A stretch of 34,649 nucleotides of DNA from an uncultured Dehalococcoidales bacterium. Lineage in GTDB: Bacteria > Chloroflexota > Dehalococcoidia > E44-bin15. Position numbers and translations under genes: made by a program. The stretch spans positions 1 to 34,649 of the forward strand of contig CAYTKL010000002.1 in NCBI GenBank assembly GCA_964438305.1, in the 5' to 3' direction. The notes under the pieces are model-generated. The model had not been told where the DNA came from, did no database searches, and worked only from the letters and a program-made list of their open reading frames with translations. Of this stretch, positions 19,650-34,073 are shown in pieces; positions within the stretch are counted from its first letter, which is position 1, and each line of letters opens with the position of its first letter.

Positions 19650-19815
19650 GATGGGTGACATCGATTCGGCCGGCAGAGCCTTGCTCATCGAGGCGCTGTT
19701 GCCTCGCTCACGACCGGCCACGGTTGACGCCTTCTATCATGTGGTGCGCCCCCCCTGAGCCTGCCGCTTCCCTAAATGAGAGCGCATGCAAACACCTGTA
19801 ACAAAGGAGCGCAAG

Positions 19816-21261
19816 ATGAAAAGATGGGATCTGGTTGCAGTGGTGTGCGTTCTCGCCCTGCTGGTCGCGGTCATTCCCGGCACCATGCCGGTGGCTGCCG
19901 ACCCGGGCGGGACGACATCGCTCACCATCACAAGATACGACTTCGACGGCACCACGGTGCTGGGTACGGTGACAATGAACGTCACCGAGTTGCAGACTCT
20001 CCCGGTCCAGGGCGATGGCTCAACGCACTACTACCTGCAGGGGCCGACCATGGACCCGCTGAACCTGTGGGACCCCGACGAGACGCTGAACCTGAAGGAC
20101 AAGGGTGCCCTCAAAGGCACCGACGTCGCCGACCTGTGCGACGAGGTGGGCATGTACCCCACCGACGAGGTCGAGGTACTGGCTGAGGACGACTTCGGCC
20201 AGACCTTCCAGTACGTCGACGTGTACGACCCCGAGCCGGAGCAGGGCAAGATGGTGGTGTGCTGGTGGAAGGACGGGGACCTGGTGCCCACCTACGACGA
20301 TGGCATGCAGCTCGTTTTCTTCGCCGAGACCACCAACGGCTCGGGCCAGTACGTGTTCGGCAACTGGGACATGAACCAGACGCTGCCCGAGGACAACCAT
20401 CACTACTGGGGCGACTACCCTTCGTCAAACGGACTGTCGGTGAAGTACATCGACCGCATCAATGTGTACAGCCATGAGTGGGAGTTGACGCTGGACGGCG
20501 ACAGCACCTACGTCATGGACCAGCCGGAGTTCGAGGAAGGGGTAGGATGCCACGAGGTGACATGGGATGACGGCGGCGACATCTGGAGCGGCATACCGCT
20601 GTGGCGGCTGGTCGGCTATGTCGACGATGACAACGTGCACGACTTCAACGACGACCTGGCGGCGGAGGGGTATGAGGTCAAGGTCACAGCCGTGGACGAC
20701 TACAGCAAGACCTTCGCCAGCGCGGACGTGGCACGCAACGACGACATGATCATCGCCAACACCCTCAACGGCGAGCCGCTCGCGGCGAACAAGTTCCCGC
20801 TGCGACTGGTCGGCCCGGACCTGACCGGGGGACAGAAGGTAGGGCAGATTGCCACCATAGAGCTGGTTGGGCTGCCCGAGGGGGACGCCAGCGCGTCGCT
20901 CGGGGCCACCGCCAACGTGGTGCTTCCGACTGTGGGAATCGGCCTGGACCGCGATTCCATAGACTACGGGGACGTTGGCCCGGGTGAAAGCTCCGATGAA
21001 GAGACGGTGAACGTCACCAACGTCGGCACTACCGACGTGGACGTGACCCTTCAGGTCATCGGGGGCAACGGAGTGGCCCAGGACTTCTACGAGCTCTCGC
21101 TTCACCTTGACGGCCTTCTCTTCGACCCTCTGGCGGTCATCGCACACATTCTGGTGGGCAATACCGAAGATGTGGTCACGCAATTGCACGTGCCGTCCAA
21201 CTGGAGCCATGGCGGCGCTCAGGAGGCGGAGTTCATCTTCTGGGCTGAAGCATCACCCTAG
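19816..21261 (+). CDS. secreted three-domain protein: novel SUOX-fold-like N-domain, Oxidored_molyb (YedY/sulfite-oxidase-fold)-like domain, C-terminal Ig-like beta-sandwich
   Basis: AAGGAG lies 7 nt before ATG 19816. Signal peptide MKRWDLVAVVCVLALLVAVIPGTMPVAA. Domain 2 has GCHEVTW...WSGIPLWRLVGYV and KFPLRLVGPDLTGGQKVGQIATIELV. The N-domain is paralogous to the 21915..22772 product. Confidence 0.8.
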   Translation: MKRWDLVAVVCVLALLVAVIPGTMPVAADPGGTTSLTITRYDFDGTTVLGTVTMNVTELQTLPVQGDGSTHYYLQGPTMDPLNLWDPDETLNLKDKGALKGTDVADLCDEVGMYPTDEVEVLAEDDFGQTFQYVDVYDPEPEQGKMVVCWWKDGDLVPTYDDGMQLVFFAETTNGSGQYVFGNWDMNQTLPEDNHHYWGDYPSSNGLSVKYIDRINVYSHEWELTLDGDSTYVMDQPEFEEGVGCHEVTWDDGGDIWSGIPLWRLVGYVDDDNVHDFNDDLAAEGYEVKVTAVDDYSKTFASADVARNDDMIIANTLNGEPLAANKFPLRLVGPDLTGGQKVGQIATIELVGLPEGDASASLGATANVVLPTVGIGLDRDSIDYGDVGPGESSDEETVNVTNVGTTDVDVTLQVIGGNGVAQDFYELSLHLDGLLFDPLAVIAHILVGNTEDVVTQLHVPSNWSHGGAQEAEFIFWAEASP

Positions 21262-28673: not shown

Positions 28674-29420
28674 CTAGTACTCCCGCGACACTCCCTGGGC
28701 CGGGTGGCCCACCACGCTCATGTAGACCACGCTTTCCTCGACCCCATCCACGCCCAGTATCCGGTTCACTTCATCATCGAACAGGGCCCCGACCTGGCAA
28801 CTGCCCAGCCCTATGCTGACCGCGGAGAGCGCCAGGCCGTGTCCCACGTGGCCGGCGTCGAGGTACACGTAGCGGTACGCCCGCTGGCTGTACTTCCATT
28901 TGGAGCGGTTGAAGATGGCCGTCCACACGAACACCACCGCGGCGTCGGCGCATATCCGCTGCCCCAGCGCCGCCCGGGTGATATCCTGCCCCAGGTCCCC
29001 CGTGCGCAGCTCCTCCAGGGCGTGCTCTCGAATGGCGTAGTGATAGGCGCCGGGCGGCACCCCCTCCACGTCATGGACAATCACGTAGGTCTCCACCGGA
29101 TAGAGGGCGCCCGCCGACGGGACGGTGCGGAACTCATGCCCGCGCTCCATGCTCCGGATGCCGTTTGACGCCCACAGCAGGTACGACAACTGCTCCAGGC
29201 TGATGGGCTTTCCGGCGAAAGAGCGAACGCTCCTGCGCCGCCGTATGGCCTCGTCCAGACTCATGTGTGAGCCCTCCGGAGGGGTGGGCAGCTCTATCCT
29301 GTTGCCGCCGGGGTACTCCTTGTACGGTTCGGGAAGCGCCATCCGCTCGCTTCCCGCCACCGCCCTGTCGCGATAGTACTTGGTGTCCTGCTGAAATGCG
29401 TCGCCCACTCCGTTGGCCAT
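28674..29420 (-). CDS. SagB/ThcOx-family nitroreductase-fold dehydrogenase
   Basis: RRRRSVRSFAGKPISLEQLSYLLWASNG...VPSAGALYPVETYV...AYRYVYLDAGHVGHGLALSA is the SagB-type pattern. GGAGGAGG RBS precedes ATG 29420; the track start 29498 is rejected. Confidence 0.8.
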   Translation of the reverse strand: MANGVGDAFQQDTKYYRDRAVAGSERMALPEPYKEYPGGNRIELPTPPEGSHMSLDEAIRRRRSVRSFAGKPISLEQLSYLLWASNGIRSMERGHEFRTVPSAGALYPVETYVIVHDVEGVPPGAYHYAIREHALEELRTGDLGQDITRAALGQRICADAAVVFVWTAIFNRSKWKYSQRAYRYVYLDAGHVGHGLALSAVSIGLGSCQVGALFDDEVNRILGVDGVEESVVYMSVVGHPAQGVSREY

Positions 29421-29518
29421 GTGCAACCTCCTCCGACCGCTGGCCAATTGTACCCCAATCGGGCACGGGAGTGATACCGAGTGCCGTTTGGCGCGCACGC
29501 ACGGCTGCCACCGCTTCG

Positions 29519-29543
29519 GTAGGGGCGTTCAATTGAACGCCCC
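29519..29543. repeat. perfect 22-bp palindrome GGGGCGTTCAATTGAACGCCCC (plus GTA flank), left copy
   Basis: Identical palindrome at 31271-31292. The flanking GTA/TAC extends the pair into a 25-bp inverted repeat. Confidence 0.9.
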
Positions 29544-29586
29544 CGCAAACGCTGGTGCTGCGGTGCCGCAGCAATGTGTATGGCCG

Positions 29587-29615
29587 TTGACAGGGTCGGC
29601 CATTCCTGCTACAAT
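29587..29615 (+). promoter_or_regulatory. sigma70 promoter (TTGACA-N17-TGcTACAAT) of the arsR-family gene
   Basis: Consensus -35 and extended -10, 44 nt upstream of ATG 29659. Confidence 0.65.
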
Positions 29616-29625
29616 GATGATAGAT

Positions 29626-29639
29626 TTAGCGATTACGCA
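29626..29639 (+). promoter_or_regulatory. 14-nt motif TTAGCGATTACGCA, copy 1 (candidate operator at about +5 of the promoter)
   Basis: Exact second copy at 30048-30061, upstream of the permease. Confidence 0.4.
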
Positions 29640-29658
29640 ACTATTAAATGATGGTGCC

Positions 29659-30018
29659 ATGGCAAGCGAACAGGACAGGTGTGAGGTACACGTGATACAC
29701 CCGGAGAAGGTGGCCGAGGCAAGGCGACGCCTGCTCGACGACAGGGCCTATGCCAGCCTGGCGGAGACCTTCGGTGCGCTGGCGGACTCCAACCGCGCCA
29801 AGATCGTCTACAGCCTTCTGGAGCAGGAGCTTTGCGTGTGCGATATCGCCGCTGTTGTCGGCATATCCGAGTCGGCGGTCTCCCAGCACCTGCGAATCCT
29901 GCGCAACCTGAGACTGGTGAAGCAGCGCAAGGAAGGCCGCATGATGTACTACTCGCTCGACGACGACCACATCCACAAGCTCCTCGACGTGTGCCTGGAG
30001 CACGTCGGCCACGACTAG
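29659..30018 (+). CDS. ArsR/SmtB-family metal-sensing transcriptional repressor
   Basis: ELCVCDIAAVVGISESAVSQHLRILR wHTH with the alpha3 C-V-C site. C-terminal DDH-x10-H-x2-H is an alpha5-like site. ATG 29659 lies downstream of the mapped promoter, so the track start 29413 is rejected. Confidence 0.88.
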   Translation: MASEQDRCEVHVIHPEKVAEARRRLLDDRAYASLAETFGALADSNRAKIVYSLLEQELCVCDIAAVVGISESAVSQHLRILRNLRLVKQRKEGRMMYYSLDDDHIHKLLDVCLEHVGHD

Positions 30019-30191: not shown

Positions 30192-31139
30192 ATGCTGATT
30201 GCGATACTTGAGAGCTTCTGGCGGTTCCTACTGGAGGCGGCGCCATGGCTGCTGCTGGGCTTCCTCTTCGCCGGCCTGATGAGCACCTTCATCCCGTCAC
30301 AGGTCATACTCCGCTACGTGGGGAGGGGCAACGTCAGGTCCATACTCGCTGCGACCTTGATAGGCATCCCCCTGCCCCTGTGCTCCTGCGGCGTCATCCC
30401 GACGGGCATAGCCCTGCACCGGCAGGGGGCGTCTCGGGCCGCCACCATAGCCTTTCTCGTCGCCACGCCGGCGACCACTATTACCGCCATCATCATCACC
30501 GTGGCCATGCTCGGCTGGCGCTTCACCGTCCTCTACGTTGCCGCTGCAGTGGCGGTGGCCATCATCACCGGGCTGGCGGCCCTTGTCCTTCTACGGGAGG
30601 GGCCGCGGCAGGCCGTTGCGAACACGGCTGCGTGCGGGTGTGTGGAGGGGAGCGATTGCTGTGAGTCGGCGGCGCCCGGCTGCACCTGCGGCAGCCAGTG
30701 GGCCTGTGGGGTGCACGGGTTCTGGGAGCGCGTGAGGGCGACCTTCCGCTACGGCTTCGTTGACATGGTGGGGGACATCGGTCACTGGATCGTCATCGGT
30801 CTGGCGGCGGCGGCCGTGCTGACCGCCCTCATTCCGCAGCACGTCATCGGCGAGTACCTCGGCGGTGGCCTGCTGTCACTGGTGATAGTGGCGCTGGTGG
30901 CCGCGCCCTCGTATGTCTGTTCCACCGCCACGGTCCCCTTCGTCGCCGCCATGGTGGCCGGCGGGATGGATCCCAGCGCCGGCCTGGTCTTCCTCATCCT
31001 GGGACCGGCGACGAACCTGTCCACTATTCTCGTCGTTGGCAGGTCCATGGGCAAAGGGGCCGTTGCCCTCTACCTCGGCTGCGTACTGGTGCTGTCCGTC
31101 GGCGTGGCGTACGTCTTCGATGCGGGGGGTCTGCTATGA
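30192..31139 (+). CDS. DUF318/COG0701 permease (ArsP / SO_0444-type metal(loid) efflux permease) with Cys-rich loop
   Basis: GIPLPLCSCGVIPTG signature, about 8 TM helices, and a central loop CGCVEGSDCCESAAPGCTCGSQWACGVHG. Downstream of the arsR-family gene. Confidence 0.8.
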   Translation: MLIAILESFWRFLLEAAPWLLLGFLFAGLMSTFIPSQVILRYVGRGNVRSILAATLIGIPLPLCSCGVIPTGIALHRQGASRAATIAFLVATPATTITAIIITVAMLGWRFTVLYVAAAVAVAIITGLAALVLLREGPRQAVANTAACGCVEGSDCCESAAPGCTCGSQWACGVHGFWERVRATFRYGFVDMVGDIGHWIVIGLAAAAVLTALIPQHVIGEYLGGGLLSLVIVALVAAPSYVCSTATVPFVAAMVAGGMDPSAGLVFLILGPATNLSTILVVGRSMGKGAVALYLGCVLVLSVGVAYVFDAGGLL

Positions 31140-31228
31140 TACAGACGATATGTGCTGTCATCCTGCTTGCGCTGATCGCGTATGCGCAGGGAAGGAAGCT
31201 GAGGGACAGGTGGAGGGCGAGGCGCTGA
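31136..31228 (+). CDS. 30-codon small membrane peptide ORF, ATGA-coupled to the permease
   Basis: My translation is MIQTICAVILLALIAYAQGRKLRDRWRARR, one TM helix plus a basic tail. Its start overlaps the permease stop. Below the ORF-track length cutoff. Confidence 0.35.
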   Translation: MIQTICAVILLALIAYAQGRKLRDRWRARR

Positions 31229-31270
31229 CCGTCGCGGCATGTCCCCAGTGAGAACGATGGATATCACGAA

Positions 31271-31295
31271 GGGGCGTTCAATTGAACGCCCCTAC
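31271..31295. repeat. perfect 22-bp palindrome GGGGCGTTCAATTGAACGCCCC (plus TAC flank), right copy
   Basis: Identical to 29522-29543. Lies between the convergent permease operon and the DAHP synthase, so it may also act as a bidirectional terminator hairpin. Confidence 0.9.
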
Positions 31296-31324
31296 AGTGT
31301 CAGGACGATGACCGCGGACTTGCT

Positions 31325-32233
31325 TCATACTGGCGATGGCGAACAGGTGGTGCGGCCCAGGGCGTGGGCCACCGCGGCGAGCTGCTGCATCAGTTGCGCG
31401 AACTCGGCGGTGGATATGGTCTGGGCGGCATCGCTGATCGAGTCCTGCGGTGAGTAGTGCGTCTCTACCATGAGGCCGTCGGCGCCGCAGGCGATTGCCG
31501 CCAGGCTCATAGCCGGCACCAGACGCGCGTTGCCGGTGCCGTGGCTCGGGTCGACGATGACCGGCAGGTGGGTCTTGGTCTTCAGATAGGGGACGGCGTT
31601 GAGGTCCAGAGTGAAGCGCAGCTCGTTGGTCGGGCCGCGGATACCGCGCTCGCACAGAATGACCTGCTCGTTGCCCTGGGCCATGATGTACTCCGCCGCC
31701 ATGAGGAACTCCTTGTAGCTCGCCGCCAGACCGCGCTTGAGCAGCACCGGCCTGGACGACCTCCCAACCTCGTTGAGCAGGGGGTAGTTCTGCATGTTTC
31801 GCGACCCTATCTGCAGGCAATCGGCGTACTCGGCCACCAGCTCGGCGTCTCGGGGGTCGAGGACCTCGGTGACCACCTTGAGGCCGGTCTCACGCGAAGC
31901 GGCGCGAAGGTGCTCCAGCCCGGCCTTGCCCAGCCCCTGGAAATCGTAGGGAGACGTTCTCGGCTTGAAGGCGCCGCCGCGAAGCAGTGCAGCCCCCGCC
32001 GCCTTGACTTCCCAGGCGATGCGCAGCATCTGCTCGGCGCTCTCAACTGAGCACGGTCCGGCCATCACCACCACCTCGGTGTGGCCCACCTCGATCCCGT
32101 CTATGTCGACCACTGTGCCCTGCGGCCTGTAGTCGCGGCCTGTCAGGTGGCATGGCGGTGCCTGATTGGTGGCGGCGAGCGTGGTGGTTGCCGCCCTTTC
32201 GCTACTGGTGCTTTGGCCTGTGTCGGTCTTCAT
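31325..32233 (-). CDS. aroF: 3-deoxy-7-phosphoheptulonate (DAHP) synthase, type I-beta
   Basis: [11 protein letters not shown]...[20 protein letters not shown]...[10 protein letters not shown]...[11 protein letters not shown]...GLMVETH motifs of the KDO8PS-like DAHP synthase family. Confidence 0.9.
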
Positions 32234-32264
32234 GATTCTAACCCCCCGAGATGTACATATACAG

Positions 32265-32291
32265 AAAGCCCTCCCGGCCTGGGAGGGCTTT
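32265..32291 (-). terminator. attenuator terminator in the aroF leader
   Basis: The minus strand reads AAAGCCCTCCC-aggcc-GGGAGGGCTTTCTGT, 31 nt upstream of the aroF ATG. Confidence 0.65.
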
Positions 32292-32327
32292 GTCCGTTGC
32301 CCGAAACACTGTGAATGCTGACTGTCT

Positions 32328-32411
32328 TTAGGTCAATACCCTCCCGGGCCCGCGCGTCGGCGTGCTAAACCAGAACCAGTAATAGTAGCGGGCAACCGTT
32401 TGGGTACTCAT
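32328..32411 (-). CDS. aromatic-amino-acid leader peptide (27 aa) [27 protein letters not shown]
   Basis: My translation of the minus strand, with ATG at 32411 and TAA at 32330-32328. Seven consecutive aromatic codons (Tyr3, Trp2, Phe2) at 32387-32367. Sits between a consensus promoter and a terminator, upstream of DAHP synthase. Confidence 0.7.
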
Positions 32412-32429
32412 TGCAACTCTCAGCCTGGA

Positions 32430-32459
32430 ATCATACCACGGATAGCACCGGGGTGTCAA
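32430..32459 (-). promoter_or_regulatory. sigma70 promoter (TTGACA-N18-TGgTATGAT) for the aroF leader
   Basis: On the minus strand the -35 is at 32459-32454 and the extended -10 ends at 32430, about 18 nt before the leader ATG. Confidence 0.6.
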
Positions 32460-32837
32460 CACCCCTTCCCTACCTGTCTACGGTCGGCCATCCGCCGCGC
32501 TGAGTCGAGCCTTGTGAAGGGCCATGCGCACCCCCTGCTACGGGCGCCACTGCGAGTAGCCCTGGAGTGACTGTTTCCGCAGCGAGCCTTCTTCCTCAGC
32601 GCTGTTGCCCCTCTCCGCTGGTAGACGCGTGGCGGTCGGGGTTTTTCCGGCGTGGTGCGCCAAATCGCCGTAATCCGCTTCTCAAATGAGGAATTCGCGG
32701 CCCAACGACCCCGGGTCAGGGAATCCCGTATGCCGGGGCCTGACCTTCAGCCAAACGCAGCATACCGCGCGCTTCCTTCCGCCCGTCCCTGCCGCAGGGT
32801 GGTTGGGGTGTGTATGTGGCCCACCCACCCGCCCTGA

Positions 32838-32890
32838 GGCGTAGTTCTGGGGGGCACCCCCAGAACTACGCCAGAGGGGGACACCCCTCT
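32838..32890. other. two adjacent perfect hairpins (16-bp and 7-bp stems) in a ~550-nt non-coding region
   Basis: GGCGTAGTTCTGGGGG-gca-CCCCCAGAACTACGCC, immediately followed by AGAGGGG-gaca-CCCCTCT. Confidence 0.6.
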
Positions 32891-33014
32891 GGACTCCCCT
32901 GTGGCGTGAAGGGGTGGAGGCGGGCCTGATGAATCAGGCAACTGCAGTGGTGCGGTGGTCGGCCTGCAGTTGCGCTGTCGCTCCTCGCTTGCTATCATTC
33001 TCTGTGATTTCGAG

Positions 33015-34073
33015 ATGGCACTGGAGGCCAGGTGCAGGACCACAGCCATGGGCATCATGCCTCACACCAATGTTGAGGTGGCGCTGCAGCTTGCCCTGAG
33101 TCTGGACATCCCTTTCTGGCCGCAGCTTCCCCGGGTGAGCTTCTACGAAGACATGTACGCCCAGGCATCGGAGAACTTCCCCGGAATACGGGTCGATGTC
33201 GAGAAGGACAAGCTCGGATTCGACACGGACAGGTTTCAGCAAGAGCTGGAACGCTACTCCGAAAGGATCGGCGATGCTGAGACCTTCACCATGAGCCGCG
33301 ACTACTCAGCGGTCTATCACCGATTCCTGGAAGAGGACCTTCAGGGCTATCACGCTATCAGGGGGCAGGTCACCGGCCCGATAAGCCTTGGCTTCAACGT
33401 GCTCGATGAGGACCGCAAGCCCATCCTGTACAACGACGACGTGAGAACCCTGCTGTTCGACTTCATACAGAAGAAGGTGAACGTCCAGTACCACCAGCTC
33501 AGAGAGAAGAACCCCAATGCCTTTGTGTGGGTGGACGAGCCGGGACTGAACTTCGTCTTCAGCGGCCTGTCCGGTTACAATGACCTCCAGGCCAAGGAGG
33601 ACTATCGGGGCTTCCTGAGCGGCTTCGATGGCCCCAGAGCGCTGCACCTGTGCCCCAACGTGAACCTGCCCTACCTGCTCGAGTTGGGGGTGGACATTCT
33701 GTCCTTTGATGCCTATCAGATAGAGTTCATGCCCCGGGAGTATGCCGCCTCGGTGGCGGGTTTCATTGAAAGCGGCAGGGTTATCTCGTGGGGAATCGTT
33801 CCCACCAGTTCGGCAACGCTTTCCGAGGAGACGGCCGAGACGCTGGCGGAGCGGCTCAGCGGCTACTGGGAGGTGGTATCGCGGAACGCTGGCATGCCGG
33901 TGAGACGGGTGGCCGAGCAGGCGCTGGTGGCGCCGGCACGATGCTGCGTCAAGGACCTGGAGGCACAGGGGCAGGCCTGTGCGTTGACCAGCGTGGAGGA
34001 GGAGAATGTCAGCACGGCATTCGCCATGCTGCGCGACGTCTCCCGAATCCTGAAGCACGAGTTCGAGCTGTAG
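33015..34073 (+). CDS. MetE C-terminal / uroporphyrinogen-decarboxylase-like (cobalamin-independent methyltransferase superfamily) protein
   Basis: TTAMGIMPHT N-terminal motif and LHLCPNVNLPYLLELGVDILSFDAY resemble short MetE-like/URO-D-fold proteins. Start is uncertain (33015 vs 33048), and the track start 32955 lies in structured non-coding sequence. Confidence 0.55.
   Translation: MALEARCRTTAMGIMPHTNVEVALQLALSLDIPFWPQLPRVSFYEDMYAQASENFPGIRVDVEKDKLGFDTDRFQQELERYSERIGDAETFTMSRDYSAVYHRFLEEDLQGYHAIRGQVTGPISLGFNVLDEDRKPILYNDDVRTLLFDFIQKKVNVQYHQLREKNPNAFVWVDEPGLNFVFSGLSGYNDLQAKEDYRGFLSGFDGPRALHLCPNVNLPYLLELGVDILSFDAYQIEFMPREYAASVAGFIESGRVISWGIVPTSSATLSEETAETLAERLSGYWEVVSRNAGMPVRRVAEQALVAPARCCVKDLEAQGQACALTSVEEENVSTAFAMLRDVSRILKHEFEL

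Follow-up and report, generated by a model that had tools for sequence, protein, structure and literature searches.

The minus strand of the 34,649-nt stretch of uncultured Dehalococcoidales DNA analysed here (hereafter, the window) very probably carries a ribosome-mediated leader-peptide transcription attenuator upstream of a monocistronic gene for a class I-beta DAHP synthase. Control of DAHP synthase by a combined Tyr/Trp/Phe attenuator had been proposed in an earlier note on this DNA, and this core proposal is strongly supported by conservation, covariation, geometry and constrained folding. The attenuator reading as a whole builds on sequence elements, conservation, covariation, geometry and energetics, whereas the position of the transcription start, the extent of the ribosome footprints, termination itself and a response to the supply of amino acids are predicted parts of the model. 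We regard the locus as a new case, with good support, of a mechanism known from textbooks. Most Dehalococcoidia have not been cultured and, to our knowledge, only a few mechanisms of their gene regulation are understood in depth.

Every element described in the earlier note (promoter, leader ORF, aromatic codons, hairpin and aroF ATG) is present on the minus strand, to which all features below belong. The sigma-70-type promoter (32430–32459) consists of a -35 hexamer TTGACA (32459–32454), an 18-nt spacer and an extended -10 element TGgTATGAT (32438–32430). It matches 11 of the 12 hexamer positions in addition to the TG extension, and in a scan of 2.2 kb (31000–33200) it was the one such site, against 0.3 expected. 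Transcription would start near 32423, approximately 12 nt 5' of the leader ORF; the very short 5' UTR that this implies was counted against the attenuator reading. An SD-like GAGAG, as read from the sequence, is located at 32417–32421, 5 nt 5' of the leader ATG, and in most relatives the same position is occupied by GAGGG or GAAGG. The leader ORF (32328–32411) opens with the ATG at 32411 and extends over 27 codons to a TAA stop (32328–32330). It therefore has the promoter, start codon, SD-like sequence and same-strand biosynthetic gene that go with the short ORF of leader-peptide attenuators.

Three parts of this ORF are of particular relevance. Leader codons 2–8 (32388–32408) form segment A, which can pair with segment B and would be the equivalent of the 1:2 helix of trpL; they are followed by the putative regulatory codons TAC TAT TAC TGG TTC TGG TTT (32367–32387), which specify YYYWFWF. 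Segment B (32334–32355), the predicted 5' strand of the antiterminator, has its core GGGCCCGGGAGGG within leader codons 19–25, and the stop codon lies 8 nt past this core. The antiterminator strand had been recognized previously, but with coordinates off by one: the core spans 32351–32339 and not 32352–32340. Downstream of the ORF, the putative intrinsic terminator (32261–32290), a GC-rich hairpin that would be the attenuator proper, reads (AA)GCCCTCCC-AGGCC-GGGAGGGC(TT) from 32290 to 32266, with AAGCCCTCCC as its 5' arm (32290–32281; segment D), AGGCC as the loop (32280–32276) and GGGAGGGCTT as its 3' arm (32275–32266; segment E). A U-rich tail, TTTCTGT, ending at 32261, follows the hairpin. 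The aroF gene (31325–32233) begins with an ATG at 32233 and is preceded by an SD-like GGGGGG (32247–32242). The distance of 31 nt given earlier between hairpin and aroF ATG needs correction, as the stem ends 34 nt and the T-run 27 nt before the start codon. A mini-ORF encoding MYISGG 3' of the hairpin was treated as a chance occurrence; in one relative (L001) there is no ATG at that place.

The aroF product is a class I-beta 3-deoxy-7-phosphoheptulonate (DAHP) synthase of 302 aa (NCBIfam NF006421, 420 bits; TIGR01361, 368 bits). DAHP synthase catalyses the committed step on the way to Tyr, Trp and Phe alike. A Pfam scan of the product returned PF00793 only, and the N-terminal regulatory domain PF18152 was not found; the best PDB matches were to the enzymes of A. 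pernix (1vs1) and P. furiosus (1zco), and the protein aligns to residues 67–334 of the T. maritima enzyme (1rzm). DAHP synthases without the regulatory domain are expected to be insensitive to Tyr, Phe and Trp. Since the DAHP synthase of the clade is without the known allosteric domain, feedback on the pathway in this Dehalococcoidia clade may come mainly from attenuation. The idea that aromatic leaders replace allosteric control as a general rule was refuted: all seven tested leader-bearing enzymes from other phyla carry PF18152, and the pattern of a leader without a regulatory domain holds for the Dehalococcoidia clade only.

The seven-codon F/W/Y run is the only one longer than four across the six frames of the window, and it places a cluster of end-product codons (Tyr, Trp and Phe) 5' of DAHP synthase, as is characteristic of the attenuator class. 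None of 200 first-order Markov simulations produced an F/W/Y run of more than five codons, so that 0/200 reached six. A chance ORF, that is, an ordinary 5' UTR containing a hairpin and a fortuitous aromatic frame, is effectively refuted, as no simulation produced a seven-codon run, the ORF is kept in every clade relative examined, comparable ORFs are enriched on the sense strand (16 loci versus 0, see below) and two of the helices covary. What might speak for chance is that the leader as a whole folds no more stably than its shuffled versions (z = -0.8), as is commonly the case for switches whose structures compete, and that a simple, strict terminator scanner did not include the hairpin, with its moderate U-tail (UUUCUGU), in its list for the window.

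In order to follow the leader through the clade, 16 relatives were picked by the enzyme alone (66–89% identity), five of them from collection scans (L001, L002, L003, L081 and L082) and eleven from protein look-ups (L161–L171). An aromatic leader and a hairpin were found in all 16 relatives with upstream DNA read, albeit in L161, a truncated locus, the leader ORF is visible as its 3' part only. Conserved aromatic leader ORFs upstream of aroF orthologs, which the earlier note had suggested looking for, are thus present throughout these relatives, and the comparison did not reveal what that note had named as evidence against its proposal, namely close relatives in which the terminator is kept but the aromatic run is lost. 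Wherever the contig of a relative extends far enough, the promoter is seen as well, as TTGACA and a TGnTAnnAT-like -10 element at the same distance to the leader ATG. Homologous leader ORFs are intact in the 14 aligned relatives (with the window, 15/15 are in frame), and indels in the leader alignment are multiples of three. The aromatic stretch takes the form of runs or near-runs that vary in residue order, synonymous codons and length. GGGAGG of segment B, by contrast, is invariant in all 15 sequences at all codon positions, indicating constraint at the RNA level. The C-terminus of the leader peptide (G-P-G-R) also looks conserved; it coincides with the nucleotide-invariant B strand.

Tyr, Trp and Phe all occur inside the aromatic run in ten of the 15 clade leaders. 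As for the others, Tyr is absent from L164, L166 and L167, leaving Trp and Phe, the sole Tyr of L165 is at codon 3, outside its WFSFWF run, and L169 is without Trp. This drift in composition bears on the possibility that the attenuator is real but responds to one or two amino acids (e.g., Trp or Phe), the mixed run reflecting drift among similar codons. We consider such restricted sensing unlikely, though deserving of attention: two thirds of the clade leaders retain all three residue types within the run, most of the aromatic leaders in other phyla do likewise, and DAHP synthase serves all three aromatic pathways. The aroR leader of Corynebacterium glutamicum nevertheless contains Phe-Tyr-Phe, yet Phe limitation affected this attenuator and Tyr limitation was reported to be without effect on transcription (PMC11802643, PMC7356990). 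The type of codon present in a leader does not, therefore, prove which amino acid is sensed.

The terminator hairpin has a predicted energy of about -19 to -21 kcal/mol and is recovered by RNAalifold. Across the 15 sequences, 97.2% of its cells are paired and 7 of the 12 pairs have changed on both sides; the covariation score (0.417, compared to 0.211 in shuffles) was reached in none of 500 shuffles, and pairing fell to 43–71% in slid controls. In combination with its moderate U-tail the hairpin has the form of an intrinsic terminator of the attenuator class, and it would presumably act as one. The U-tails of two relatives, L162 and L163, are poor.

The antiterminator predicted from B and D involves the 5' arm of the terminator, and the two structures are therefore mutually exclusive. 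In the window, the B:D duplex is the more stable of the two (-26.1 kcal/mol versus -20.9 for the terminator hairpin). Over the 15 sequences 94.5% of its cells are paired and three pairs have changed on both sides. All three are situated at terminator-loop positions and, consequently, cannot be explained by the terminator stem. The B:D covariation score was reached by 4 of 500 shuffles, and slid controls dropped to 34–66% pairing. The number of underlying events is small: three cells in 15 related sequences. Taken together, covariation argues for the terminator and, more modestly, also for the antiterminator.

The third predicted helix brings in a conserved upstream partner of B, drawn from leader codons 2–6, which was missing from the earlier note and which completes the classical 1:2/2:3/3:4 scheme. 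The A:B duplex amounts to -26.7 kcal/mol in the window and to between -17 and -28 kcal/mol over the clade sequences, and in 12 of the 15 its stability exceeds that of controls with a shuffled A. At fixed coordinates the helix displays one G-C to C-G swap, and in L002 it is kept in a shifted register. A:B can thus take the part of the upstream sequestering (1:2) helix, albeit it is the weakest of the three. A further 8-nt complementarity had been pointed out between GTTGCCCG (32396–32389, leader codons 6–8) and CGGGCAAC (32296–32303). It does exist in the window (A:C, -16.5 kcal/mol), but relatives do not conserve it: the energy is -10.3 kcal/mol in L081 and, for L001, L002 and L003, a weak -3.4 to -7.1 kcal/mol, compensatory changes being absent. 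We rejected it as a conserved feature; the pairing is probably lineage-specific and incidental.

In the mechanism that we propose, four RNA segments would compete: A (codons 2–8), B (GGGCCCGGGAGGG), D (CCCUCCC and the loop AGGCC) and E (GGGAGGGC and the U-rich tail). With plentiful Tyr-, Trp- and Phe-tRNA, the ribosome would proceed as far as the UAA, which lies 8 nt beyond B, and thereby cover B; after its release A would re-pair with B, D would pair with E, and transcription would halt before aroF. Should any of the three charged tRNAs be scarce, the ribosome would stall on YYYWFWF and keep A apart from B. B would then be exposed, since it starts about 17 nt past the last aromatic codon, and could pair with D once D emerges, blocking the terminator and allowing RNA polymerase to read into aroF. 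If the leader is not translated at all, A:B would form and the terminator would act, which amounts to a default-off state.

The spacing of the elements agrees with this scheme. In 13 of the 15 sequences the stop codon is 9 nt from the end of the GGGAGG core, a distance at which the usual footprint size would have a ribosome at the stop codon cover the B core. Counted from the start of the final aromatic codon, B begins 17 nt further on in five sequences, and in 10 of the 15 that codon, for which the script takes whichever aromatic residue comes last in the whole peptide, begins 24 nt before the B core. With footprint sizes assumed, a stalled ribosome would thus free segment 2, which would be masked once the ribosome stands at the stop codon. 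Folding of the alternative structures, also suggested in the earlier note, gave the expected result for every state of the ribosome when it was constrained, with folds of nascent RNA ending before segment E in place of full-length equilibrium folds: B:D formed in 15/15 sequences in the stalled-ribosome state, the terminator in 15/15 with the ribosome at the stop codon, and in free RNA the terminator in 14/15 and A:B in 13/15. Equilibrium folds of the full-length leader with a stalled ribosome were set aside; these often still contained the terminator, in some sequences even with B free. As equilibrium favours the terminator in some sequences, the model depends on co-transcriptional kinetics.

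Two other readings accept the conserved ORF or the conserved hairpin and differ in how they are connected. In one, the ORF is a gene for a functional small hydrophobic/aromatic or trans-acting peptide, similar to peTrpL of Sinorhizobium, the hairpin ends that gene and aroF has a promoter of its own. Trans-acting leader peptides do exist (PMC7298713, PMC7968998), and the apparent conservation of the G-P-G-R terminus could be seen in this light. We nevertheless find the reading very improbable: the conserved C-terminus overlies the invariant B strand, so that selection at the RNA rather than the protein level is indicated, aromatic residues swap freely and the run varies in length, the stop codon is at a fixed distance from B, and B:D covaries. 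Moreover, the promoter scan found no site in the ~30 nt between the hairpin and aroF, its one site being 5' of the leader. The peptide of the attenuator could, in addition to its role in attenuation, have a function in trans.

In the other reading, the terminator/antiterminator switch is set without a ribosome by a trans factor, such as uncharged tRNA (T-box), a TRAP-like protein or a metabolite. Alternative pairings alone do not name the sensor, and the T-box (RF00230) is likewise a terminator/antiterminator switch reporting aminoacyl-tRNA status; T-boxes bind uncharged tRNA directly and have no leader ORF. The same clade uses a T-box for trpE, which the Rfam scan detected upstream of that gene in L168 (RF00230, 111 bits). 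At the aroF leader, the same scan gave no match to RF00230, whether judged by the gathering threshold or with E-values allowed up to 10, nor to any other Rfam family beyond a sub-threshold hit to Phe_leader, and neither inspection by eye nor Rfam recognized a specifier-loop, a T-box sequence or (G/U)AG repeats. Given also that a trans factor leaves the conserved SD, ATG, frame, stop position and aromatic run unexplained, we hold this possibility to be highly improbable, and ribosome-mediated attenuation remains the preferred reading.

Similar aromatic leaders upstream of the DAHP synthase gene occur in several other phyla. In the upstream regions of class I-beta DAHP synthases, 16 of 152 loci had a sense-strand mini-ORF with a 7-residue stretch containing at least 6 aromatics; the same threshold gave 0 on the antisense strand and in shuffles. 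Only scores of at least 6 were taken as evidence, ORFs with a score of 5 being without enrichment upstream of these genes (10 sense versus 8 antisense). Many of the aromatic mini-ORFs are followed by terminators, and most of the leaders in other phyla hold Tyr, Trp and Phe; in the Verrucomicrobiota loci the location of the FL domain confirmed the gene start. In the Rfam scan, no family matched the leader of the window at the gathering threshold. Phe_leader (RF01859) reached 22.4 bits (gathering threshold 55; E = 0.22) and covered the terminator region only, Trp_leader (RF00513) gave no match at E-values up to 10, and the leaders from other phyla were not covered by Rfam at all. Because aromatic leaders are absent from Rfam, annotation pipelines currently miss them.

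We tentatively entertain a wider reading, one that we would not yet bet on, in which a large, as yet uncatalogued, multi-phylum set of pan-aromatic leader-peptide attenuators guards class I-beta DAHP synthases, acts as the sole end-product control in Dehalococcoidia and has its codon mix retuned in sub-clades. The phyla in which such leaders were seen include Chloroflexota, a Gemmatimonadota-like group, Planctomycetota and Verrucomicrobiota, together with Desulfurella. On this reading the ferredoxin-like allosteric domain would either have been lost from the Dehalococcoidia enzyme or never have been part of it, leaving the attenuator as the only control on carbon entering the shikimate pathway. 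Retuned sub-clades would be represented by L164–L167, with runs of Trp and Phe only, and by the Trp-free L169.

Leader-peptide attenuation of the committed shikimate step would, then, be no oddity of Corynebacterium but a solution recurring across several phyla. The leader described here is a clean regulatory element with comparative support that can be annotated in Dehalococcoidia genomes, and the ratio of leader to aroF coverage in metatranscriptomes would report aromatic amino-acid limitation in situ. The attenuator family appears to be undescribed in Chloroflexota: a literature search returned nothing relevant for such a leader in this phylum, which is a weak absence given that most subscription journals were outside its coverage.

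The notion that control of this kind is undescribed for GC-rich genomes was too strong, as high-GC C. glutamicum has a studied aroR leader upstream of aroF. We take the AroF of that species not to be of class I-beta, and the regulated genes are therefore probably not orthologous. The aroR-aroF attenuator is described as experimentally characterized (Neshat et al. 2014) in PMC11802643 and PMC7356990, and the two systems share an aromatic leader peptide 5' of a DAHP synthase gene and a high-GC host, with ribosome stalling raising expression in C. glutamicum. They differ in that aroR has three regulatory residues (Phe-Tyr-Phe), with no Trp reported, whereas the window leader has seven codons for Tyr, Trp and Phe, and in the host phylum (Actinomycetota for aroR, Chloroflexota for the window leader). 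What this comparison shows is a functional analogy. In Acholeplasma, uORFC-13-1 is a predicted uORF with a promoter, an RBS and a Phe-coding U-run that lies immediately 5' of an intrinsic terminator, exclusively upstream of aroF (PMC8632094). This computational prediction comes only from Acholeplasma and from environmental sequences without assignment, and codes for at least one Phe rather than for a long mixed aromatic run like that of the window (PMC8632094).

With trpL and pheL of E. coli the window leader shares a promoter, a short ORF with tandem regulatory codons, the 1:2/2:3/3:4 helices, an intrinsic terminator, a biosynthetic gene and a stop codon placed for a terminating ribosome to mask segment 2. 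It differs from them in regulating the DAHP synthase of the common pathway rather than a terminal-branch operon, in mixing regulatory codons for three amino acids, and in that segment 1 (codons 2–8) precedes the regulatory codons instead of containing them. By this analogy, the leader would work like Phe_leader and Trp_leader while standing outside both Rfam families. The sampling of several amino acids by one peptide is known from the E. coli thr and ilvGMEDA leaders, in which shortage of any of them relieves termination; these proteobacterial leaders respond to Thr and Ile, or to Ile, Leu and Val, and control terminal-pathway operons. The leader of the window would likewise sample several amino acids at once, these being the three aromatics instead.

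The gene aroF (ATG at 32233, end at 31325, minus strand) encodes a 302-aa class I-beta DAHP synthase (DAHPS), which matches the NCBIfam models NF006421 (420 bits) and TIGR01361 (368 bits) and contains PF00793 and no other Pfam domain. Its best solved relatives are the enzymes of A. pernix and P. furiosus, and its alignment with the T. maritima DAHPS begins at residue 67 of the latter, past the N-terminal ferredoxin-like regulatory domain. Upstream of aroF, the minus strand carries a promoter with the -35 hexamer TTGACA (32459-32454), an 18-nt spacer and the extended -10 element TGgTATGAT (32438-32430); 11 of its 12 hexamer positions match, and no other such site occurs in 2.2 kb (0.3 expected). 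Further elements read from the sequence of this strand are the Shine-Dalgarno-like GAGAG (32421-32417), a leader ORF of 27 codons (ATG at 32411, TAA at 32330-32328), the hairpin AAGCCCTCCC-AGGCC-GGGAGGGCTT (32290-32266, tail to 32261) and GGGGGG (32247-32242) ahead of the aroF ATG. The promoter, leader ORF, hairpin and aroF listed in the earlier note are thus all present, although some of its coordinates were off by one (GGGCCCGGGAGGG actually occupies 32351-32339) and the distance from stem end to ATG is 34 nt, not 31 nt. Across all six frames of the 34.6-kb window, no aromatic run exceeds four codons except the seven-codon one of the leader, and a run of six appeared in none of 200 Markov simulations.

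Homologous DAHPS loci were collected together with their upstream DNA. Within the genome collection, the nearest genes are those of three Dehalococcoidia MAGs (L001, L002 and L003, with 77, 78 and 87% identity, respectively), and a metagenome scan added L081 (89%) and L082 (78%). A protein search retrieved ∼90 clade members at 66% identity or more, all of ∼300 aa and without PF18152, the ferredoxin-like regulatory domain; proteins of the next tier (at most 63% identity) have ∼337 aa and in most cases contain it. Upstream DNA was obtained for eleven clade members (L161–L171), which were selected solely on the protein and the length of the contig, without regard to the leader. Every clade relative examined has a homologous sense-strand mini-ORF directly upstream of the DAHPS gene, as exemplified by the peptides of L003 (MNTRTGNRYDFYFWYWFSTRSRAPGRVLS), L002 (MSNQVNNRYYFFSYYWFSSPRGGPGRT), L162 (MHHQAHSYYFYFWFSTLLRGPGRALT), L164 (MHDQVQVWFSFWFSPPFPGLGRASA), L168 (MANTSQTYFAYYFWWYTFTDVSGRVLPKTAD) and L171 (MHNQAINYFYFYFWYSKLCGSGRALT) and by that of L081, likewise on the sense strand; in L161 the contig end leaves just the 3' part. 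The TTGACA/TGnTAnnAT promoter lies at a constant distance in all relatives whose contig extends to it.

Across an alignment of 15 clade leaders the ORF is intact, the length of every indel in the aromatic region is divisible by three, synonymous codons vary and aromatic residues swap with one another; GGGAGG of the segment predicted to form the 5' strand of the antiterminator (segment B) shows no variation at any of the three codon positions. This pattern is typical of selection for aromatic codons at this place combined with an RNA-level constraint, not of selection for a particular peptide. Loss of the aromatic run from relatives that keep the terminator, which the earlier note had named as contrary evidence, was not seen in the clade. 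The codon mix does shift: the aromatic codons of L164 (1045-1122) and of L166 and L167 (both 1035-1121) are limited to Trp and Phe (WFSFWF or WFGFWF), L165 (1047-1118) has a single Tyr outside the run, and L169 (1059-1142) has Tyr and Phe without Trp. Such shifts may reflect retuned amino-acid sensing. Separately, L002 (2700-2905) and L082 carry ∼200 nt between terminator and aroF start that are absent from the window and the other relatives. In L003 (1992-2890) the tblastn match to DAHPS is split, residues 77-299 forming one piece, which suggests a frameshift due to assembly error or a pseudogene; its leader is intact.

The terminator, formed by its 5' and 3' arms (segments D and E), was recovered from the clade alignment by RNAalifold. 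Pairing of D with E holds in 97.2% of cells, 7 of the 12 pairs have changed on both sides among the 15 sequences, and the apical pair is C-G in seven sequences and U-A in seven. The covariation score (0.417 versus 0.211 in shuffles) was reached by none of 500 shuffles, and sliding the partner columns reduced pairing to 43–71%. In the window, the alternative helix B:D, the predicted antiterminator (5'-GGCC-C-GGGAGGG with CCCUCCC-A-GGCC), has a predicted energy of -26.1 kcal/mol, versus approximately -19 to -21 kcal/mol for the terminator hairpin. B:D is paired in 94.5% of cells (34–66% in slid controls), and three pairs have changed on both sides: C-G to U-A in L164 and again in L168, and a pair for which most sequences have U-A but L170 has G-C. 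All three involve nucleotides of the terminator loop, so that the terminator stem cannot account for them. Its covariation score was reached by only 4 of 500 shuffles; this support for B:D is real, though the events are few. A third helix, the predicted anti-antiterminator, in which leader codons 2-8 (segment A) pair with B, reaches -26.7 kcal/mol in the window and is stabler than duplexes with shuffled A in 12 of the 15 sequences (p≤0.05); one of its pairs changes from G-C to C-G between sub-clades, and L002 keeps the helix in a shifted register with other bases (AUGUCC with GGACAU). The pairing of GTTGCCCG with CGGGCAAC pointed out in the earlier note is unconserved, falling from -16.5 kcal/mol in the window to between -3.4 and -7.1 kcal/mol in L001, L002 and L003.

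The geometry is likewise conserved: 9 nt separate the end of the B core from the leader stop in 13 of 15 sequences, and in most the B core follows the start of the run's final codon by 24 nt, so that B itself begins ∼17 nt downstream. Folding was performed for three states, in which a ribosome was assumed to cover positions from about -15 to +12 nt relative to the A-site codon. B:D formed in 15/15 folds with the ribosome stalled in the aromatic run and the nascent RNA ending before E, and the terminator in 15/15 with the ribosome at the stop codon; free RNA gave the terminator in 14/15, with A:B alongside in 13/15. When the entire RNA is folded to equilibrium, the terminator is often favoured even with B free; the switch would therefore have to be kinetic, B:D forming before E is transcribed, as in classical systems. 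With ample Tyr-, Trp- and Phe-tRNA, the ribosome would proceed to the UAA and mask B, D:E would form and transcription would end ahead of aroF. If one or more of these charged tRNAs ran short, the ribosome would stall at codons 9-15, holding A off B; B would then pair with D and RNA polymerase would continue into aroF. If the leader were untranslated, A:B would pair and the terminator would act. Conservation, covariation, geometry and the three-state folds all support the Tyr/Trp/Phe attenuator first proposed from the sequence, and we consider it highly probable that the leader mediates standard multivalent leader-peptide attenuation; the moderate U-tail is among the grounds for the doubt left.

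We surveyed 152 class I-beta DAHPS loci whose upstream DNA was long enough, looking for mini-ORFs with at least six aromatics per seven-residue window. Sense-strand ORFs of this kind were present at 16 loci, with none on the antisense strand and none in shuffles (20 per locus); ORFs scoring five were not enriched (10 sense versus 8 antisense), and certain Gemmatimonas loci of this score resemble aromatic leaders. Apart from those of Dehalococcoidia, the 16 are loci from Desulfurella, Phycisphaeraceae, Verrucomicrobiota, Chthoniobacterales and unassigned metagenome contigs. Most leaders outside Dehalococcoidia are followed by a GC-rich hairpin and a U-run, the hairpin's complementary strand lying in most cases within the 3' part of the ORF; leader and terminator occur together at L025, L048, L061, L132, L133, L134, L151 and L160 (example peptides MVVNIINNSVSYWWYYFYSWRE, MDTQAFFFGYFWFDPAPAAMGLTL and MTRSATYFYYYYVATRTTGRGWSSTR). 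Verrucomicrobiota-type leaders (L049 2529-2624, L063 2531-2626, L065 2539-2634, L067 529-624 and L122 1029-1124), whose peptides end in ...FFYYWRFFFGF, are situated ∼280 nt upstream of the DAHPS start and are followed by no more than a weak hairpin with a U-run; they may work by another or a longer-range mechanism. No Rfam 15 family covers any of the leaders from other phyla. All seven leader-bearing DAHPS tested from these phyla carry the ferredoxin-like domain, which rules out replacement of allostery by attenuation as a general rule. For the Dehalococcoidia clade alone such replacement is possible, since their DAHPS lack this domain.

Several other elements were encountered. In L168 a genuine T-box (RF00230, 111 bits; 2123-2385) separates aroF from an anthranilate-synthase-like gene (Chorismate_bind) further downstream, so that one lineage would combine leader-peptide attenuation for aroF with a T-box for trpE. 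In the window, a divergent 372-aa ORF (32955-34073, plus strand) without Pfam or NCBIfam match adjoins the attenuator promoter. Tandem Moco/tungsten-cofactor riboswitch aptamers (RF01055; 19273-19413 and 19521-19661, plus strand; 74 and 83 bits) lie directly upstream of a 491-aa ORF (19786-21261) with a weak molybdopterin-oxidoreductase domain match, and may provide a sharper or two-input response. The 22-nt perfect palindrome GGGGCGTTCAATTGAACGCCCC occurs twice (29522-29543 and 31271-31292; 0 expected), flanking genes for an ArsR-family regulator (29413-30018) and an SO_0444-family Cu/Zn efflux protein (30192-31139). The second copy is placed between convergent genes, 33 nt past the stop codon of aroF. 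Sequences flanking one copy are unrelated to those flanking the other, and the palindrome may act as a bidirectional terminator or represent a REP-like element.

The proposed aroF attenuator should be of use in annotation and for reporting limitation of aromatic amino acids in situ, and is unlikely to surprise specialists. Multivalent leader-peptide attenuators are known for thr and ilv. The window leader shares the architecture of trpL and pheL but falls outside their Rfam families by covariance-model score: the Rfam scan gave 22 bits for Phe_leader (RF01859), whose gathering score is 55, and no other match. In the literature searched, which covered few subscription journals, no description of such an aroF leader from Chloroflexota was found. 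For E. coli aroF, attenuation was put forward as a hypothesis in 1980, and a uORF motif upstream of aroF in Acholeplasma (uORFC-13-1) has been predicted in one study (PMC8632094). In C. glutamicum, aroR upstream of aroF is reported to encode a Phe-Tyr-Phe leader peptide, and stalling on it to lift aroF expression under Phe, not Tyr, limitation (PMC11802643, PMC7356990). Given this system, the suggestion that such control is undescribed for GC-rich genomes was overstated; by analogy, aroR-aroF of C. glutamicum is the nearest functional precedent for the window leader.
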